Source: Planctomycetota bacterium
GTDB taxonomy: Bacteria; Planctomycetota; UBA1135; UBA2386
DNA: 64,000 nucleotides
Reading direction: 5' to 3'
Assembly: GCA_965228735.1 (NCBI GenBank)
Contig: OZ245838.1
Location: 1,600,001 to 1,664,000, forward strand
Each line of letters opens with the position of its first letter. Position 1 is the first letter of the stretch. The position numbers were made by a program, and so were the translations under genes. Positions 3,005 through 37,857 of this stretch are shown here, piece by piece. The notes below the pieces were generated by a model. It saw only the letters and a program-made list of their open reading frames with translations. It made no database searches and had not been told where the DNA came from.

Positions 3005-3048
3005 ACCAGATGCGGCCACGGCGCCGCGCCATCGATATGCTGCGTCGC

Positions 3049-3909
3049 GTGAACTGCCGCACCGGCTACCACCGCGCAGACCGAACGTCTGCGCCTTTCC
3101 GCATCATGCTGCTCGCCTTGCTGATCGTGGTGCCCGCGTGCGATGACAAGGGCCCGACGCTCGGCACGATCGACGCCGGAGCACTGCAACTGGACAGCGA
3201 CATCGCGCGCTGGGAGCGCCTCGACGAGCACGAGCCACCACGCCGCCTGCGCGACCCGCGCACGGGCGTCGTCTTCCGGCGCGTCGAACCCGGATCGTTC
3301 CCCCAACACCTGCCGCAGCTCGACATCACGCGGACGATCCGCGTGAGCCGCCCGTTCCTGCTCGCCGAGACCGAGTTCACGGCGGGCCAGTTCCGTGCGT
3401 TCGCGAGCCGGGCCATCGCCGGCCCGACCCTGCCGACCCCGAAGCAGGACGAGCTGCCGATGCCGTTGTCGTTCGACGACTCGGTCGCGCTGTGCGATGC
3501 GCTCGGCTACCGCCTGCCGACCGAAGCCGAATGGGAGCTCGCGTGCCGCGGCGGCCACGCGGACGCGACCGCGCCGTGGTCGACGCCCGCCGCCGTGCGC
3601 GAGCACGCGTGGTTCAACGCCAACGCGGGCAGCGGCCCCCAACCCGTCGCGACCCGCACGCCGAACGCGCTCGGCTTCCACGACATGCTCGGCAACGTCT
3701 GGGAATGGTGCATCGACTACTACGAGATGGCGCCGTTCGGGACCGACCCCGCGCCGGTCGATCCGCAGACCACCAACGTCATGCCGGGCCGCGCAATGCG
3801 CGGCGCCTCGTGGTTCACGCCGGGCAACCCGCAACCGACGGACCGGTCCCAGGACTTCCCGGCCACGCGCAACATCTTCTACGGCCTCCGCCCAGCCCAC
3901 GACCTCTGA
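3049..3909 (+). CDS. formylglycine-generating-enzyme (SUMF1/FGE-sulfatase) family protein, probable lipoprotein
   Basis: YRLPTEAEWELACRGG, PNALGFHDMLGNVWEWC, RGASW; lipobox-like VVPAC; start 3049 or 3106. Confidence 0.85.
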   Translation: MNCRTGYHRADRTSAPFRIMLLALLIVVPACDDKGPTLGTIDAGALQLDSDIARWERLDEHEPPRRLRDPRTGVVFRRVEPGSFPQHLPQLDITRTIRVSRPFLLAETEFTAGQFRAFASRAIAGPTLPTPKQDELPMPLSFDDSVALCDALGYRLPTEAEWELACRGGHADATAPWSTPAAVREHAWFNANAGSGPQPVATRTPNALGFHDMLGNVWEWCIDYYEMAPFGTDPAPVDPQTTNVMPGRAMRGASWFTPGNPQPTDRSQDFPATRNIFYGLRPAHDL

Positions 3910-3913
3910 GGAT

Positions 3914-4012
3914 TGGCGGTACCGAACCCGTTTCGAATCCGCCACGGAGCGACGAGCGCAGGTGGCGCTGCCGAACCGCGTTGGCGAACCTGGTCGATGG
4001 CGGATTCGAAAC
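3914..4012. repeat. 115-bp palindromic REP/REPIN-like element, copy 1 (left arm, spacer and part of the right arm; interrupted by the intron)
   Basis: Arm TGGCGGTACCGAACCCGTTTCGAATCCGCCA at 3914-3944; inverted arm split into 3998-4012 and 6005-6020. Confidence 0.9.
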
Positions 4013-6004
4013 GCCGGGTGGCCCTGGGGGTCTCCCCCCAGGGCTCCCACAGATCCGGACGTGCGCGGCTAACGCATCCGGCTCGTCAGCGACAAGGGCT
4101 CGCTGCGTAGACCGACCGGGTCAGCCGGGGCGGAGGAAGCGGGTATGCACGCAGCAGTTGCTCGAAGCGGGCCCACGACATGTAGGCCGCCCGCGAGCGC
4201 CGGCTCAGCCACCGATGCCAGATGCGACGGGCCTCGTACCATACGCGACGTAACGCAGCAGAGTTGCCGGTCACGCCGAAGTAGAGGTAGTGCCCCCGTA
4301 GCTTCGAGCACAGGGTGGAGTACTGGACGCGGACCTTGTCGTGCCGATTGCGACGGCACCAATCCCGTAGCCCAGTCAGGGTACGGGTCACGACGTGTCG
4401 TGTGGTGCGCCGCTGCACGGTCCATCGGCCGCGCCGGGAGCGTGACCAGTGATGGGTGAAGCCCAGGAAGTCGAAAGTGCCGCTCCCCGCCGCGCCGTCT
4501 TCGGGCGGTTGGAAGCGGACTAACCGGGTCTTGTCCGGATGCAGTGTGAGGCCGAAGCGCCCGAGCCTTTGGGCCAGGATCGACGACATCGCACGTGCAT
4601 CGGCTTCGACGGCAAACAGGATCACGAAGTCGTCCGCATAGCGGACCAACTCCGCGCGACCGGCAAGCCTCGGCTTGACTTCCTCGACAAACCAACGGTC
4701 CAGCACTGCGTGCAAATAGATGTTCGCCAGCAGCGGCGAAATCACGCCTCCTTGTGGGGTGCCTTTGCGAGAGCGATGCAGCGCACCGTCCTCCTGCACC
4801 CCCGCCTTCAGCCACTTGTCGATCAGTCGACGGAACACTCCGTCGCGCACCCGCTGGTCGAGGATCGCTCGCAGATGGGTCGGCTCCAGGTTGTCGAAGA
4901 AACCTTGGATGTCGACTTCCAATAGCCAGCCGCCACCCATCGACATCGCATGCTTCCAAAGCGATTCCAGTGCCGTGTGCGGCGAGCGACCGGGACGGAA
5001 GCCGTGCGAGCAGTCCAAGAAGTCCTGCTCATATACCGCCTCCATCACTTGCGTCACCGCCCGCTGCAAGACCTTGTCCTCCAGCGTCGGCACTCCGATT
5101 GGACGCGTGCCACCCTTCCCTTTCGGGATGTGCACGCGCCGGACCGGTGGTGCGCGATAGCGCCCTGACTTCGCGCGTTCGTGCAGGTCCGCGAGGTTGC
5201 CCTCGAGATCCTGCTCGTAGTCGCGAGCCGTGACGCCGTCGACACCAGGAGCTTTGGACTTCTGCGTGCGGCGATACGCCTCCCGCAGAAGCGCGATGTC
5301 CATGTGGTGTGCCAGTGTGGTCAGGACCAGGTCTGGTCGCTGCCTCGCCAGCTCCGCTACCCGCCGGAGTTTCGTGGAGACCTGCTCGGAGCCCGTCGTC
5401 TCCGTGGTCGGTCCGTCCAGCGGTTCCTTGTCGCCGGTGACGCCCTTCCCTCCGCCGGGTCCCCGTGGGGCGGGTTCCCCGGACTCTTTGGTACTATGAC
5501 GCACTCCGACTCCCTCGTTGGCGTCCCGCGTCGCTTCGTTTCCTTCGCTCGGCGGTACCGGCCGTGTGTCCGGATTCCTTGACGGCACCGACGCGGACAC
5601 GACGTCGCGGCCCTGGAGAGTTGGTTTCCGGGCCCCAGCCGGAGTTGACGATCGGACCAATCGAGGGGATCCCAGGTTCCTGGGGAGTCCGATGGATGCG
5701 TGCGGTCGTTCTCAGGACCCCGGAGAGACTTCCGGGCCAAGCCGGTTGCGGCCCTTCCATGTTGCCTTCCGATGAACCCACCACGTCGGCTCTCTCGCTG
5801 TCGGTACTTTCGGGGCTCAGTCGCGCCGCCCACATCCTCGCTGTCTACGCTTCGCAGCGGCGGTTACCCGGTCGCCACGCAAGACTCGCTTCCGGCTGGT
5901 GGCTAGCCTTCGCCGGGCGGGTTTCGTCACCCGCGGGACTCCAATACGGGGTTCTCATTCCTGTCAGGTCATGATTTCTCCCGTCCAGGCTTCGCCTGGC
6001 GCAA
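4013..6004 (-). mobile_element. group II intron (IIB-like), 1992 nt
   Basis: Domain V GAGCCGGATGCG...GTCCGGATCT (4084-4051) with AGC triad; domain VI with a bulged A 7 nt from the end; 5' end TTGCG; removing it restores the flanking palindrome arm. Confidence 0.92.
4086..5420 (-). CDS. ltrA: group II intron reverse transcriptase/maturase, no endonuclease domain
   Basis: APGVDG, RPIGVPTLEDK, GFRPGRS, GTPQGGVISPLLANIYL, RYADD, FDFLGF, domain X; start codon uncertain (see findings). Confidence 0.93.
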   Translation of the reverse strand: MDGPTTETTGSEQVSTKLRRVAELARQRPDLVLTTLAHHMDIALLREAYRRTQKSKAPGVDGVTARDYEQDLEGNLADLHERAKSGRYRAPPVRRVHIPKGKGGTRPIGVPTLEDKVLQRAVTQVMEAVYEQDFLDCSHGFRPGRSPHTALESLWKHAMSMGGGWLLEVDIQGFFDNLEPTHLRAILDQRVRDGVFRRLIDKWLKAGVQEDGALHRSRKGTPQGGVISPLLANIYLHAVLDRWFVEEVKPRLAGRAELVRYADDFVILFAVEADARAMSSILAQRLGRFGLTLHPDKTRLVRFQPPEDGAAGSGTFDFLGFTHHWSRSRRGRWTVQRRTTRHVVTRTLTGLRDWCRRNRHDKVRVQYSTLCSKLRGHYLYFGVTGNSAALRRVWYEARRIWHRWLSRRSRAAYMSWARFEQLLRAYPLPPPRLTRSVYAASPCR

Positions 6005-6020
6005 AGGTTCGGTACCGCCA
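6005..6020. repeat. remainder of the right arm of palindromic element copy 1 (5' exon carrying IBS1/IBS2)
   Basis: AGGTTCGGTACCGCCA is the reverse complement of 3914-3929 with one mismatch. Confidence 0.9.
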
Positions 6021-6024
6021 ACCT

Positions 6025-7143
6025 CTATCGGAGAAGTCGCTCGCGTTGCAGGTACTCGTGGATCACCCGGGCCTGGATCGCGTGGCCGACGTCGTTGGCG
6101 TGCTGATCGCTCGGATGAGCCCAGAGGTCCTGCTCGTCGCCGTCGTAGGCGAGGAACGCGGGCAGCAGGTCGAGCGTGCGAATGTCGTTGTCCGCACAGA
6201 ACGACGTCACCAGCTCGTGCACCGGCCGCAACGGGTAGAGCTCCGGCTCGAGCTGCGACAGCATGGGGAAGACGCAGACGACGAGCGGGACGCCGCGCGG
6301 CCGCAGCGCGTCGCGCAGCGCGAGCAGGCCCTCGCGCGTGCCGCGCCACATCGGACTGTCCTCCTCGATGCGGCTGCGGAAGTCGGTCATGCGCTGCCGC
6401 GCGCGATACTGCCGAACGAGCTGCACCGTGTGATCGAGCGCCAGCGAGACGCCGCCGAGCACCGGCTCGAGCGGGACCGCGCGATACGTCAGCATGCCGA
6501 TCCGGACATCGATGTCGTTGAGGCACAGCCCCACGAGCACGAGATCGGGTTCGAAGTGGATGCCGTTGTCCCGCACCCAGACGTGGTAGCTCGACGGGTC
6601 ACTGCCGGCCGTCGCGAAGCCGGCGTTGATCACCTCCACCGGTCGCGCGAGCTCTTCCCGCAGCCGGGCCTCGAGGACCTGCGGCCAGCTCAGGTCGAGC
6701 CGCACGCCCATGCCATAGGTCATCGAATCGCCGAGCGCGAGGACGCGGTACTCGTTCGGCGCCTTCTGCACGTCGAACTCGAGATCGCGCAGGCCGAGAC
6801 TGTTGGTGTCGATACGCACGCAGCCGTGCTCGTCGAAGTAGTCCCAACGCGGCGCCGGGCGATACCCCCACCGCAGCTTGAGGTTGGCGAGCAGCAGGCC
6901 GTAGGGCGGCTCGGTGAAGCCGTTGTCCGCCGAGAAGTCGCTCGTCGCCATCTTCCCGGAGTAGGCGATCACCTCACCGAGCGGCACCTCGAGCCCGGCG
7001 TCGGTGAAGTAGATCGGATGCGGGGCGACCGGCCGGCCCCGGATCCGGAGCCCGGCTTCGATGAGCAGCACCGGCGCGATGATCCCGAACGCGATCAGAC
7101 CGAGTTTCTTGCCGAACCCGATCCTGCCGCGACGTCGAACCAC
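6025..7143 (-). CDS. membrane-anchored SGNH/GDSL hydrolase family protein
   Basis: N-terminal TM helix; TNSLGLRD, LALGDSMTYG, VINAG, CLND, DQHANDVGH. Confidence 0.87.
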   Translation of the reverse strand: MVRRRGRIGFGKKLGLIAFGIIAPVLLIEAGLRIRGRPVAPHPIYFTDAGLEVPLGEVIAYSGKMATSDFSADNGFTEPPYGLLLANLKLRWGYRPAPRWDYFDEHGCVRIDTNSLGLRDLEFDVQKAPNEYRVLALGDSMTYGMGVRLDLSWPQVLEARLREELARPVEVINAGFATAGSDPSSYHVWVRDNGIHFEPDLVLVGLCLNDIDVRIGMLTYRAVPLEPVLGGVSLALDHTVQLVRQYRARQRMTDFRSRIEEDSPMWRGTREGLLALRDALRPRGVPLVVCVFPMLSQLEPELYPLRPVHELVTSFCADNDIRTLDLLPAFLAYDGDEQDLWAHPSDQHANDVGHAIQARVIHEYLQRERLLR

Positions 7144-7225
7144 GAAGGCATCGTGCGCCCGTTCGGTCGCTGCCGCAACCCTGCCGCCGGTCGCGCCGAC
7201 CGGCGCGCCATGGCATAGTCGCGCC

Positions 7226-8473
7226 ATGCCGGCTCACGACCGCCCCGCCGTCCGCCCACTCGACGTGCAGCGCATCGAACACAGCGACGGCCCCGGCATC
7301 GTGCTCGTCGATCGCCTCGGCATCAGCGAACCGTCGTTCATCCCCGAGGACCTGCTCCCGATCGTCGGCCGCTGCACCGGCGAGTGGACGCTCGGCGAGA
7401 TCCGTGAACAGGCCGCACCGCAGTACGGCGGCGAACTCCCCGCCGAGTTCGTGCAACAGGTCGTCGATCAGCTCGAGGATCGCGCGCTCCTGCTCGGCGG
7501 TCGCTTCGAGACCGCGATCGCCGAGCGCGCCGCGCAGTTCATCGCCGAACCCCGCCGGGCGGCCAGCCATGCCGGCTCCGCGGGCTACCCGGCCGACGCG
7601 GCGGCGCTGCGCGCGGCACTGCGCCGGCTCGTGTCGACCGACTGCCTCGCGACCGGGGCGGCGGCCCCCGTGCGCGGCCTCGTGGCGCCGCACATCGATC
7701 TCGCCCGCGGCGAGCGCGGCTACGCCGCGGCCTACGGCCATCTGCTGACCGCGGAACCCGCCGACCTCTACGTGATCTTCGGCACGGGTCATGCCGGACC
7801 GAGCGCTCCCGTGACCGGCCTGTCGCTCGACTGGCAGACGCCGCTGGGCATCGCGGCGACGGACCGCGCGTTCGTCGAGCACGTCCACCGGGCGATCGGC
7901 CCGCCGCGCCCCGGCGACCTGCTGATCCACCGCGCAGAACACAGCATCGAGTTCCAGGTCTTGCTGCTGCAGCACGTGCACGAAGCGCTCGGCATCGCTC
8001 CGCCGCGCGTCGCGGGCTTCCTCTGCGGCGCGCTGCCGTCCGCTACGGGTGACCCGCTCACCGAGGACTACTGCCGTGACATCGTGCAGAGCTTCCGCGC
8101 GGCCGAGGCCGGGTTCGCCGGCACCGTGCGCTACATCGCGGGCGCCGATCTCGCGCACATCGGACCGTTCTTCGGCGATCCGGCCCCCGTGGACGACGCG
8201 CGGCTCGCGCAGCTCGAGACGACGGAACGCGCCCGCCTCGCGCAACTGACGAACGGCAGTCCCGGCCCGTTCCACGCGTCGGTCGACGGCAACGGCAACC
8301 CCGATCGCGTGTGCTCCGCGCCCGCGATCACGCTCACCGCCGAACTCGCGGGCGGCGTTGGCGAGCTGCTGCACTACGGCCAGGCGCGCGCGGCCGACGA
8401 TTCGCAGACGGTGTCGTTCTGCGCGATGACGTTCGCGGGCCCGTCACCCGAGCCCGACACGACGCGGCCCTGA
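7226..8473 (+). CDS. amrB: AmmeMemoRadiSam system protein B (MEMO1 family) with N-terminal extension
   Basis: HAGSAGYP, VAPHID, IFGTGH, WQTPLG, EHSIEFQ, ADLAHIG. Confidence 0.85.
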   Translation: MPAHDRPAVRPLDVQRIEHSDGPGIVLVDRLGISEPSFIPEDLLPIVGRCTGEWTLGEIREQAAPQYGGELPAEFVQQVVDQLEDRALLLGGRFETAIAERAAQFIAEPRRAASHAGSAGYPADAAALRAALRRLVSTDCLATGAAAPVRGLVAPHIDLARGERGYAAAYGHLLTAEPADLYVIFGTGHAGPSAPVTGLSLDWQTPLGIAATDRAFVEHVHRAIGPPRPGDLLIHRAEHSIEFQVLLLQHVHEALGIAPPRVAGFLCGALPSATGDPLTEDYCRDIVQSFRAAEAGFAGTVRYIAGADLAHIGPFFGDPAPVDDARLAQLETTERARLAQLTNGSPGPFHASVDGNGNPDRVCSAPAITLTAELAGGVGELLHYGQARAADDSQTVSFCAMTFAGPSPEPDTTRP

Positions 8474-24616: not shown

Positions 24617-24725
24617 ACCCGGCGCTGACCTACTTTCGCACAGAGCACTATCATCGGCCCTGGCTGCTTGACTGCCGTGTTCGGAATGGGAACGGGTATT
24701 TCCAGCCAGGTATGGGCACCGGGAG
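24617..24725 (-). rRNA. rrf: 5S rRNA (short, ~109 nt)
   Basis: CCCGTTCCCATTCCGAACACGGCAGTCAAGC; terminal helix CCGGTG/CGCCGG. Confidence 0.95.
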
Positions 24726-24870
24726 ACGCATTGAGACCGCGATGGGGATCGCGGCGCTGTCCGTCAGGGTGCACGGCTGCTGCCGGCACGCGCTCACGAA
24801 CGAGCGCAACTCGCGCTCAGGAAGAGAGACCGCTGGGGGTCTTCGAGTCCACTTGAAGTGGAATAAATGA

Positions 24871-27792
<2,922 letters not shown>

Positions 27793-27832
27793 TGATTCTC
27801 ACTCGAGATCCTCAACGATCTCTCTTCCTGAA

Positions 27833-27850
27833 CCCGAGTTGTCAAAGAAC
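27833..27850 (-). promoter_or_regulatory. boxA-like antitermination/processing motif in the ITS
   Basis: Minus strand GTTCTTTGACAACTCGGG; near-copy in the rRNA leader. Confidence 0.6.
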
Positions 27851-27922
27851 GAAGCGCCGCGCGGATACCGCGGGCGCTGTGCGTTTGCAGTCTCTTCTCC
27901 GAGCCGCTCGGCATGGCCGAAT

Positions 27923-27998
27923 TGGTGGAGACGAGGGGAATCGAACCCCTGACCTTCTGGTTGCAAACCAGATGCTCTACCAATTGAGCTACGTCCCC
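27923..27998 (-). tRNA. tRNA-Ala(TGC)
   Basis: GGGGACGTAGCTCAATTGGTAGAGC...TTGCAA...TCCACCA. Confidence 0.97.
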
Positions 27999-28047
27999 GC
28001 CCTACCGGGCGCGGGCGCAGCCGTCAGCGGCAGAGCTCCACACCGAA

Positions 28048-28124
28048 TGGTTGGCCTAGGTGGATTCGAACCACCGACCTTACGCTTATCAGGCGTACGC
28101 TCTAACCAGCTGAGCTATAGGCCA
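28048..28124 (-). tRNA. tRNA-Ile(GAT)
   Basis: TGGCCTATAGCTCAGCTGGTTAGAGC...CTGATAA...TAGGCCAACCA. Confidence 0.97.
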
Positions 28125-28284
28125 CAGCGACCGAGACCGATCACTCCGCGACGCGGATGACCGAACTCGAGAAGAGAAAGTAGGGTGGCCTCGAAAAGAC
28201 TCGCGCGTGAGTCCTGTGATTGCACATCGAGCGATGACCGGCGAACCCGGAGGTCCACCCGCGCCGCTCGCGGCAACTTTCCTT

Positions 28285-29843
<1,559 letters not shown>

Positions 29844-37742: not shown

Positions 37743-37857
37743 TGGCGGTACCGAACCCGCTTTGATTCCGCCACCCGCTCCCGTTCGCAACTACCGCGGT
37801 TGCATCCCCTTGCCGCCGGGCGGTGGTGGCGGATCTGAAACGGGTTCGGTACCGCCA
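37743..37857. repeat. 115-bp palindromic REP/REPIN-like element, copy 2 (intact)
   Basis: 31-bp arms at 37743-37773 and 37827-37857 with a 53-bp spacer; same family as the element at 3914. Confidence 0.92.

Follow-up and report, generated by a model that had tools for sequence, protein, structure and literature searches.

The target repeats of a group II intron in a planctomycete genome carry mismatches to the guide sequences of the intron mainly in one of their two inverted arms, the one that we call leading-oriented, whose IBS strand is the lagging-strand template. This strand-specific erosion is the distinctive result of the analysis, the targeting of inverted repeats itself having already been published for RmInt2. 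We read it as target-site escape, in which arms exposed on the lagging-strand template would have been selected to lose the IBS2 landing code, and assign this reading a probability of about 0.6. The intron lies in a window of 64,000 nucleotides (the whole stretch of DNA that was analysed) taken from a genome, G000, of 7.19 Mb in a single contig, and the features of the locus are collected in Table 1.

The intron and its guide sequences

Both boundaries of the intron and its EBS1 and EBS2 motifs are those given in an earlier note on this DNA, which had them right. The element has the domain I and domain V/VI structure of a group II intron, encodes an RT/maturase and is inserted exactly, without target duplication, between a 5′ exon closing with GAACCT and a 3′ exon opening with GTTTCG. 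The RT/maturase ORF scores 345 bits against TIGR04416 (cut-off 300) and its sole Pfam match is RVT_1, a nuclease or endonuclease domain not being found with Pfam or NCBIfam. The DV-DVI region, with a DV loop of sequence UUAGC, matches RF00029 weakly (E 1e-4, 31.9 bits, under the gathering score of 40) and folds with z = −3.7; domain I gives z = −1.24 in single-sequence folding. Group II introns make a contact between their first and penultimate bases, and among 45 related introns base 1 (window 6004) and the penultimate base (4014) covary, G occurring with A in 30 and T with G in 10, with 5 exceptions; the window intron belongs to the T/G type.

Table 1. Features of the intron locus and of other elements in the window (window coordinates).
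Feature	Position	Strand	Remarks
Group II intron, 1,992 nt	6004 to 4013	-	5′ TTGCG, 3′ CCGGC; one of 10 genomic copies
RT/maturase ORF, 405 aa	4086..5303	-	ATG at 5303, real start possibly further upstream; YADD motif
Domain I core	5707..5925	-	Rfam RF02005, 123.5 bits
Domains V-VI	4013..4086	-	AGC triad, 5-nt DV loop, long DVI stem
EBS1 (GGGUUC)	5774..5779	-	pairs with exon −1 to −6
EBS2 (GUACCG)	5802..5807	-	complementary to exon −8 to −13
EBS3 (C)	5715	-	pairs with +1 G
Invaded arm, 5′ half, leading-oriented	6005..6020	-	IBS1 6010-6005, unpaired −7 at 6011, IBS2 6017-6012
Invaded arm, 3′ half	3998..4012	-	+1 G (IBS3) at 4012
Spacer, 53 bp	3945..3997	.	identical to spacer of filled doublet G000:6838625; differs in run X4
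Partner arm, lagging-oriented	3914..3944	+	perfect, empty
Second doublet, empty	37743..37857	.	minus-strand arm 37857-37827 leading-oriented, IBS-intact
GDSL lipase-like gene	6025..7227	-	upstream, on the intron's strand; stop codon 5 nt from arm
FGE-sulfatase domain gene	3010..3909	+	downstream, convergent
rRNA operon and two tRNAs	24617..29842	-	co-oriented with replication

The guide sequences were assessed by covariation. From 110 related-RT loci fetched, 68 with a usable 5′ boundary were retained and 51 distinct introns, the window intron among them, were left after removal of near-duplicates; the partner of each exon position was sought as the domain I column showing complementarity in the largest number of introns. 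Exon positions −1 to −6 map in order onto 5779-5774, with 34-46 of the 51 introns complementary against 13-16 expected, positions −9, −10 and −11 map onto 5806-5804 (37-39 of 47-50 introns, 13-14 expected), and position +1 maps onto C5715 (34 of 40 introns, 12 expected). Covariation thus supports all three contacts of IIB-type target recognition, EBS1, EBS2 and EBS3, the last of which was absent from the earlier note. No convincing partner for −7 was found among the 51 introns, and no covariation was resolved among them for −8, −12 and −13, where the alignment is gappy; the EBS2 of the window intron is itself fully complementary. The Rfam RF02005 alignment assigns EBS1 to a terminal loop and leaves EBS2 unpaired, but single-sequence folding partly buries EBS1 (unpaired probability 0.07-0.82). 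The predicted placement of EBS1 in a domain I loop, which had also been proposed earlier, has the support of the Rfam model and of covariation and is not borne out by single-sequence folding.

The target repeat and the strand bias of insertion

Ten copies of the intron are present in G000, of which eight are uninterrupted, 99.95-100% identical and variable at a single position only. The other two (G000:339710-344444 and 6550593-6553893) are broken up by multicopy insertions 1.3 and 1.4 kb long, and the 1.4-kb insertion encodes a transposase that we take to be IS256-like. The near-identity of the intact copies suggests recent arrival, unless the copies have been homogenised. All ten junctions fall, with no target duplication, at one base of one 31-bp REP-like arm, the position that the earlier note had proposed to score.

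A scan of G000 for this arm (family A) at ≤7 mismatches gave 135 matches, one of which, a self-palindromic double match, was removed to leave 134 arms, compared with none at ≤8 mismatches in the reversed genome. The arm folds as a hairpin, and all but 14 of the 134 arms, which are singles, are paired in inverted doublets; there are 60 of these, 53 of them having a spacer of 53 bp. By codon-model gene calls none of the 60 doublets lies within a predicted gene and 33 lie between convergent genes. The arm was found in none of 90 other genomes of the bacterial family, so that an intron-free genome carrying family A is not to be had among these relatives; the nine metagenome loci share 99.7-100% identity with G000. 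In being multicopy, intergenic, species-specific and made of hairpins paired in inverted doublets, family A agrees with REP/REPIN elements, but the REP/REPIN tag GTAG or CGTC is not present in it, and it is classed as REP-like only, its conserved motif being GTAC. The spacers (for example window 37774-37826) are deeply diverged, with a mean best match of 32 of 53, and in many of them GCAAC persists close to one end and GTTG close to the opposite one. At G000:6118568, 6828389, 6191220, 2670435, 5556088 and 6788824, units of another REP family, family B, lie within family-A arms or spacers or are fused with them.

A Y1/HUH transposase gene with a C-terminal HTH (G000:6715991-6717016) has family-B units on its flanks, together with half of a family-A arm. 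A profile search of the genome with PF01797 gave no match and the gene emerged only through NF047646, at a loose threshold (51 bits, under the cut-off of 80); the protein itself scores above cut-off for PF01797 and carries the HTH. It is at most a candidate for the cognate RAYT of the repeats and more closely resembles subclass 2.1/TIRYT as described in the available portions of 10.1101/279083 and PMC3733652; similar GTAC units also lie on either side of its homologues in relatives.

The arm at 3914, previously treated as a separate element, is the partner arm of the invaded doublet. The three unoccupied arms named in the earlier note are present in the window, and the 13-mer core that it called invariant differs at EBS-paired positions in 51 of the 134 arms. 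The minus-strand arm of the second doublet is a predicted open target, with insertion between 37842 and 37841, and the GDSL lipase-like gene next to the window intron is the likely source of read-through transcription. Filled copies include one with an altered −7 and one, the window copy, with a G-U pair at −1, both variants being filled as EBS-IBS pairing predicts.

The sequencing runs were searched for empty and filled alleles, a comparison that the earlier note had suggested. In X4 the contig carrying the upstream gene leaves the reference at 6005 and goes on with the remaining arm, which is the empty allele; in runs X1, X2, X3 and X5 the upstream contig enters the intron. The ratio of intron to flank depth, which does not equal copy number, is about 5 (X4), 10 (X2), 12 (X5), 16 (X3) and 18 (X1), and is a rough sign of ongoing spread. 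The X4 spacer at the window locus is the spacer found behind the copy at G000:6550577, and in G000 the window locus and G000:6838625 have one identical spacer in common. Filled loci seem to have swapped spacers, although misassembly across 2-kb repeats could have the same result; such exchange suggests conversion, which would mask the age of the intron. The proposal that an endonuclease-less intron chooses a multicopy, intergenic, palindromic repeat by EBS-IBS pairing is upheld by the ten junctions, the covariation, the empty allele of X4 and the location of every doublet outside predicted genes, and none of the findings named beforehand as counting against it (unrelated flanks, buried EBS motifs, a repeat with two copies) was obtained.

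The origin of replication was placed at the GC skew minimum at 4.57 Mb, beside dnaA, with the maximum at 1.25 Mb. With an intact arm defined as one matching at −13 to −8, −6 to −1 and +1, T being permitted at −1, 9 of the 24 intact leading-oriented arms are filled compared with 1 of the 59 intact lagging-oriented arms (p = 3e-5). The two arms of a doublet are thus not equal targets, and the idea that the repeat offers sites on both strands is not supported. None of the 43 mismatched leading-oriented arms is filled (p = 3e-5 against the intact ones), and 15 intact leading-oriented arms are still empty. The combination of a missing En domain with a bias towards the lagging-strand template is that of endonuclease-minus, fork-primed introns such as RmInt1, and the same bias is known for RmInt1 and RmInt2 (PMC4615759 and PMC5894124, in the portions available). 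The insertion pattern is as expected for fork-primed homing, by which the intron would be primed at the fork.

Strand-specific mismatches and their explanation

IBS mismatches are found in 43 of 67 leading-oriented arms and in 8 of 67 lagging-oriented arms. Among discordant doublets, 33 have the mismatch on the leading arm and 3 on the lagging arm (p = 2e-7), and the mutated side changes strand at the origin, the two replichores giving 18:2 and 15:1. Positions −12 and −11 account for 37 of the 49 leading-arm IBS mismatches, mostly one per arm and in six alleles, and the two are never mutated in the same arm (0 vs 5.1 expected, p = 0.0014); the remaining IBS positions hold 12 leading versus 4 lagging mismatches (p = 0.077). 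Doublets with the most similar spacers bear different −12/−11 alleles, so the mutations look independent. No imbalance between the arms is seen outside the IBS (38 vs 45); the counts for C columns (15 vs 15) and for the remaining G columns (3 vs 2) are likewise even, and a general strand-biased mutation was rejected on these grounds. The direction of transcription was likewise rejected as the cause, since the bias holds in all gene contexts (convergent 16:1, tandem on the lagging strand 8:0, tandem on the leading strand 7:1, divergent 2:1).

Three other sets of repeats were compared. The 65 family-B doublets in G000 have no strand asymmetry (3 vs 8), a control to be read with the caveat that family B, by its sequence, differs from family A outside the IBS too; 23 of its leading-oriented arms deviate at the EBS-paired positions only at −12, and the intron occupies none of them. 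In genome G028, where no match to the window intron was found, a search for the homologous REP at ≤3 mismatches gave 87 units that could be oriented among the matches listed (100 of 101), and 5 of 35 and 10 of 52 of these are mutated in leading- and lagging-oriented units respectively (p = 0.77), so that the bias is absent here as well. In genome G301 the corresponding figures, 6 of 18 and 3 of 21, lean in the direction seen for family A, but the GC skew there is weak and 15 further empty units could not be assigned to a strand.

By extrapolation from RmInt1 and RmInt2, read-through transcription of the intron would be followed by splicing, and the intron RNP would reverse-splice into the single-stranded lagging-strand template, where a nascent fragment would prime the cDNA; each doublet would then have one vulnerable arm and one nearly safe arm. 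Homing of this RmInt-like, fork-primed kind, taken jointly with the target identity, the EBS1/2/3 complementarity, the filled and empty alleles, the 9:1 strand bias and the strand-specific IBS mismatch excess observed here, makes up an account that we hold to be very probably correct. Target-site escape adds that filled loci may be costly to the host, as identical 2-kb copies would recombine, and an allele whose vulnerable arm has a single IBS mismatch would therefore spread. Selection would be channelled to −12 and −11, positions that also differ between REP families, because the conserved core of the repeat (−10 to −2) tolerates little change. The excess of IBS mutations in precisely the arms that the intron uses puts in doubt the earlier view of these sites as harmless. 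Against escape, the mismatch excess lies mainly at two positions, −12 and −11, and −12 does not covary among the 51 introns. RmInt2 inserts with −11 unpaired (PMC4615759, in the portion available), so a single IBS2 mismatch need not block homing. The intact leading-oriented arms that are still empty and the young look of the present copies also weigh against escape. In its favour, the EBS2-IBS2 pairing of IIE/IIF introns is described, in the available part of PMC3753933, as dispensable for splicing and is proposed to act in homing. That the two selfish elements are engaged in an arms race, dozens of exposed arms having independently gained guide-breaking mutations with their mirror arms intact, has in our judgement only slightly better than an even chance of being right.

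The same asymmetry could be produced by survivorship, if filled doublets were deleted wholesale and those that survive were already mutated in the vulnerable arm; the process would still be driven by the intron, with no allele selected at a standing locus. We consider this unlikely. The 14 single arms are in its favour, 6 of the 7 leading-oriented singles being mutated and most lagging-oriented singles intact, and purifying selection on intron-loaded genomes has been argued for Enterobacteriales (PMC3522654, in the part available). At the lagging-arm rate, however, the 43 mutated survivors would require some 300 lost doublets by an arithmetic estimate, no intron remnants were found in the genome beyond the 10 copies, and deletion by itself leaves the mutual exclusion of −12 and −11 unexplained. 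It is distinctly unlikely that the Y1/HUH transposase makes the asymmetry, doublets that lose GTAC on the lagging-template strand becoming immobile and accumulating while the intron uses the remainder. Family B, the most direct flank of the Y1 gene, is without strand asymmetry, as is, among the matches listed, the REP of a 50%-identical enzyme in G028, and the commonest allele (C at −12, 13 of 37) retains GTAC and matches family B; these outweigh the presence of a family-A half arm beside the gene, the identity of −11 as the G of the conserved GTAC, the clustering of mismatches at and beside that motif and the action of IS200/IS605-type enzymes on the lagging-strand template (bioRxiv 10.1101/279083, in excerpt).

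The arms might have been eroded, before a late arrival of the present intron, by an older or another strand-biased element whose site overlaps, either a previous intron allele or an IS. The present copies are near-identical and the spacers deeply diverged, and a second group II RT, 43% identical, is encoded at G000:7172428; but the eroded columns lie in the IBS of the present intron, the 3′ flank of the second intron contains no family-A arm, and the conversion suggested by spacer exchange would hide the age of the present copies, which leaves this reading improbable. Strand-specific mutation at GGTACC, or avoidance of it as a restriction site, with no selection by the intron, is highly improbable. 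Positions −12 to −7 do form this palindromic hexamer and take most of the mismatches, but avoidance was rejected because the genome has no shortage of the hexamer (observed/expected 1.27) and variants of it show no strand skew across the genome; moreover, the mirror columns of the lagging arms show no matching excess (−8: 1 vs −11: 20), and the mutual exclusion of −12 and −11 would not be expected from mutation alone. We give next to no weight to a spread mainly by homologous recombination between repeat arms rather than by retrohoming: two filled loci do have an identical spacer, and the empty allele of X4 has the spacer of another filled copy in G000, but 8 of the 10 filled loci have spacers of their own, and recombination would favour neither the lagging-strand template nor IBS-intact arms.

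Group II introns are thought to occupy neutral places, and their cost has so far been argued indirectly. Each doublet serves as its own control, with an identical arm on the other strand, and selection against being a target becomes readable site by site. Should the arms race be real, it would provide direct, internally controlled evidence that 'safe-harbour' insertions cost the host, it would mean that bacterial repeats evolve target-site immunity, and it would form part of a wider pattern in which an intron clade re-programmes its EBS to the palindromes of Y1 transposases. An intron could in this way shape the sequence of a REP family. The six natural −12/−11 alleles are a ready test set for the role of EBS2-IBS2 in the homing of IIE/IIF-type introns.

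Related introns and known systems

The earlier note knew of no described system of this kind. A literature search, with most subscription journals outside its coverage, found neither EBS-programmed homing into REPs nor a strand-specific decay of targets described, but the inverted-repeat logic had been published for RmInt2 (PMC4615759). The papers cited below are compared on the portions of their text available. A plasmid search gave no named class, the best match having 56% identity. G000 also contains a second, single-copy group II intron (43% RT identity, G000:7171750-7173750) and a distant RT (27% identity, G000:4720047-4720886).

Related introns with other EBS sequences are associated with other palindromic repeats in three further genomes. 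In G301 all 7 RF00029 matches adjoin a 63-copy hairpin repeat, as does an eighth copy with a damaged 3′ end. In G057 a 56%-identical intron, recovered at its 5′ junction, begins where a motif ends that its EBS1 matches; this motif has 198 matches, including one beside the Y1 gene. Multicopy Y1 elements in G094 have 18 palindromic ends, one of which contains a related intron. These genomes were chosen for palindromic-looking flanks and therefore give no frequency; together they suggest that introns repeatedly settle in Y1-linked palindromes or repeats like them. Not every intron of the clade targets repeats, the flanks being unrelated beyond the IBS in five multi-copy groups (L042/43/47/49, L055/57/59/60/61, L028/30/31, L046/48 and L039/54). 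Among the related loci, the introns of L027, L039, L046, L048, L054 and L063 lie directly after a self-complementary 12-mer (TTTCCGCGGAAA-like), and those of L001, L012 and L023 lie in short tandem-repeat tracts.

Like the REP/REPIN and TIRtron elements of Y1 transposases (PMC3733652, 10.1101/279083), family A consists of intergenic inverted hairpin doublets with fixed spacing, mostly between convergent genes, and related units flank an HUH-Y1 gene with a C-terminal HTH of subclass 2.1/TIRYT-like type; its motif is GTAC in place of GTAG or CGTC, and its mobilisation by the Y1 enzyme is putative. A group II intron of Pseudomonas putida KT2440 is also REP-associated, in 2 of 9 copies compared with 10 of 10 here (PMC1525189). 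Class C (IIC) introns likewise use multicopy intergenic hairpins, namely terminators (PMC3522654) and attC sites (PMC7923331), but they are without EBS2 and read structure (PMC3522654); membership of class IIC was rejected because the EBS2 of the window intron covaries and its insertion falls within the hairpin arm and not after the hairpin. The introns of class F or IIE-IIF (Ge.ur.I1, Pe.th.I2; PMC3753933, PMC3552965) share with the window intron an IIB-like fold, an RT/maturase without endonuclease, an EBS2, a 5-nt DV loop (PMC3753933) and a long DVI stem. On these features the window intron is a candidate for this class; repeat targets are not described in the available text of these two papers.

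The closest parallel in targeting is RmInt2 of Sinorhizobium meliloti GR4 (class D, IIB3), which sits in the inverted repeats of ISRm17 (PMC4615759, PMC5894124). Both introns lack an endonuclease, recognise the target by EBS1, EBS2 and EBS3, prefer the lagging-strand template and are present in several identical copies, and for both an inverted-repeat target guarantees one usable site per element. They differ in that RmInt2 targets the ends of an IS and the window intron a 115-bp, non-coding, REP-like doublet of 60 copies, and in their tolerance of mismatches, RmInt2 accepting an unpaired −11 and the window intron occupying no arm with a mismatch. Strand-specific decay of the target, which the available text of PMC4615759 and PMC5894124 does not describe for RmInt2, is seen in the targets of the window intron.
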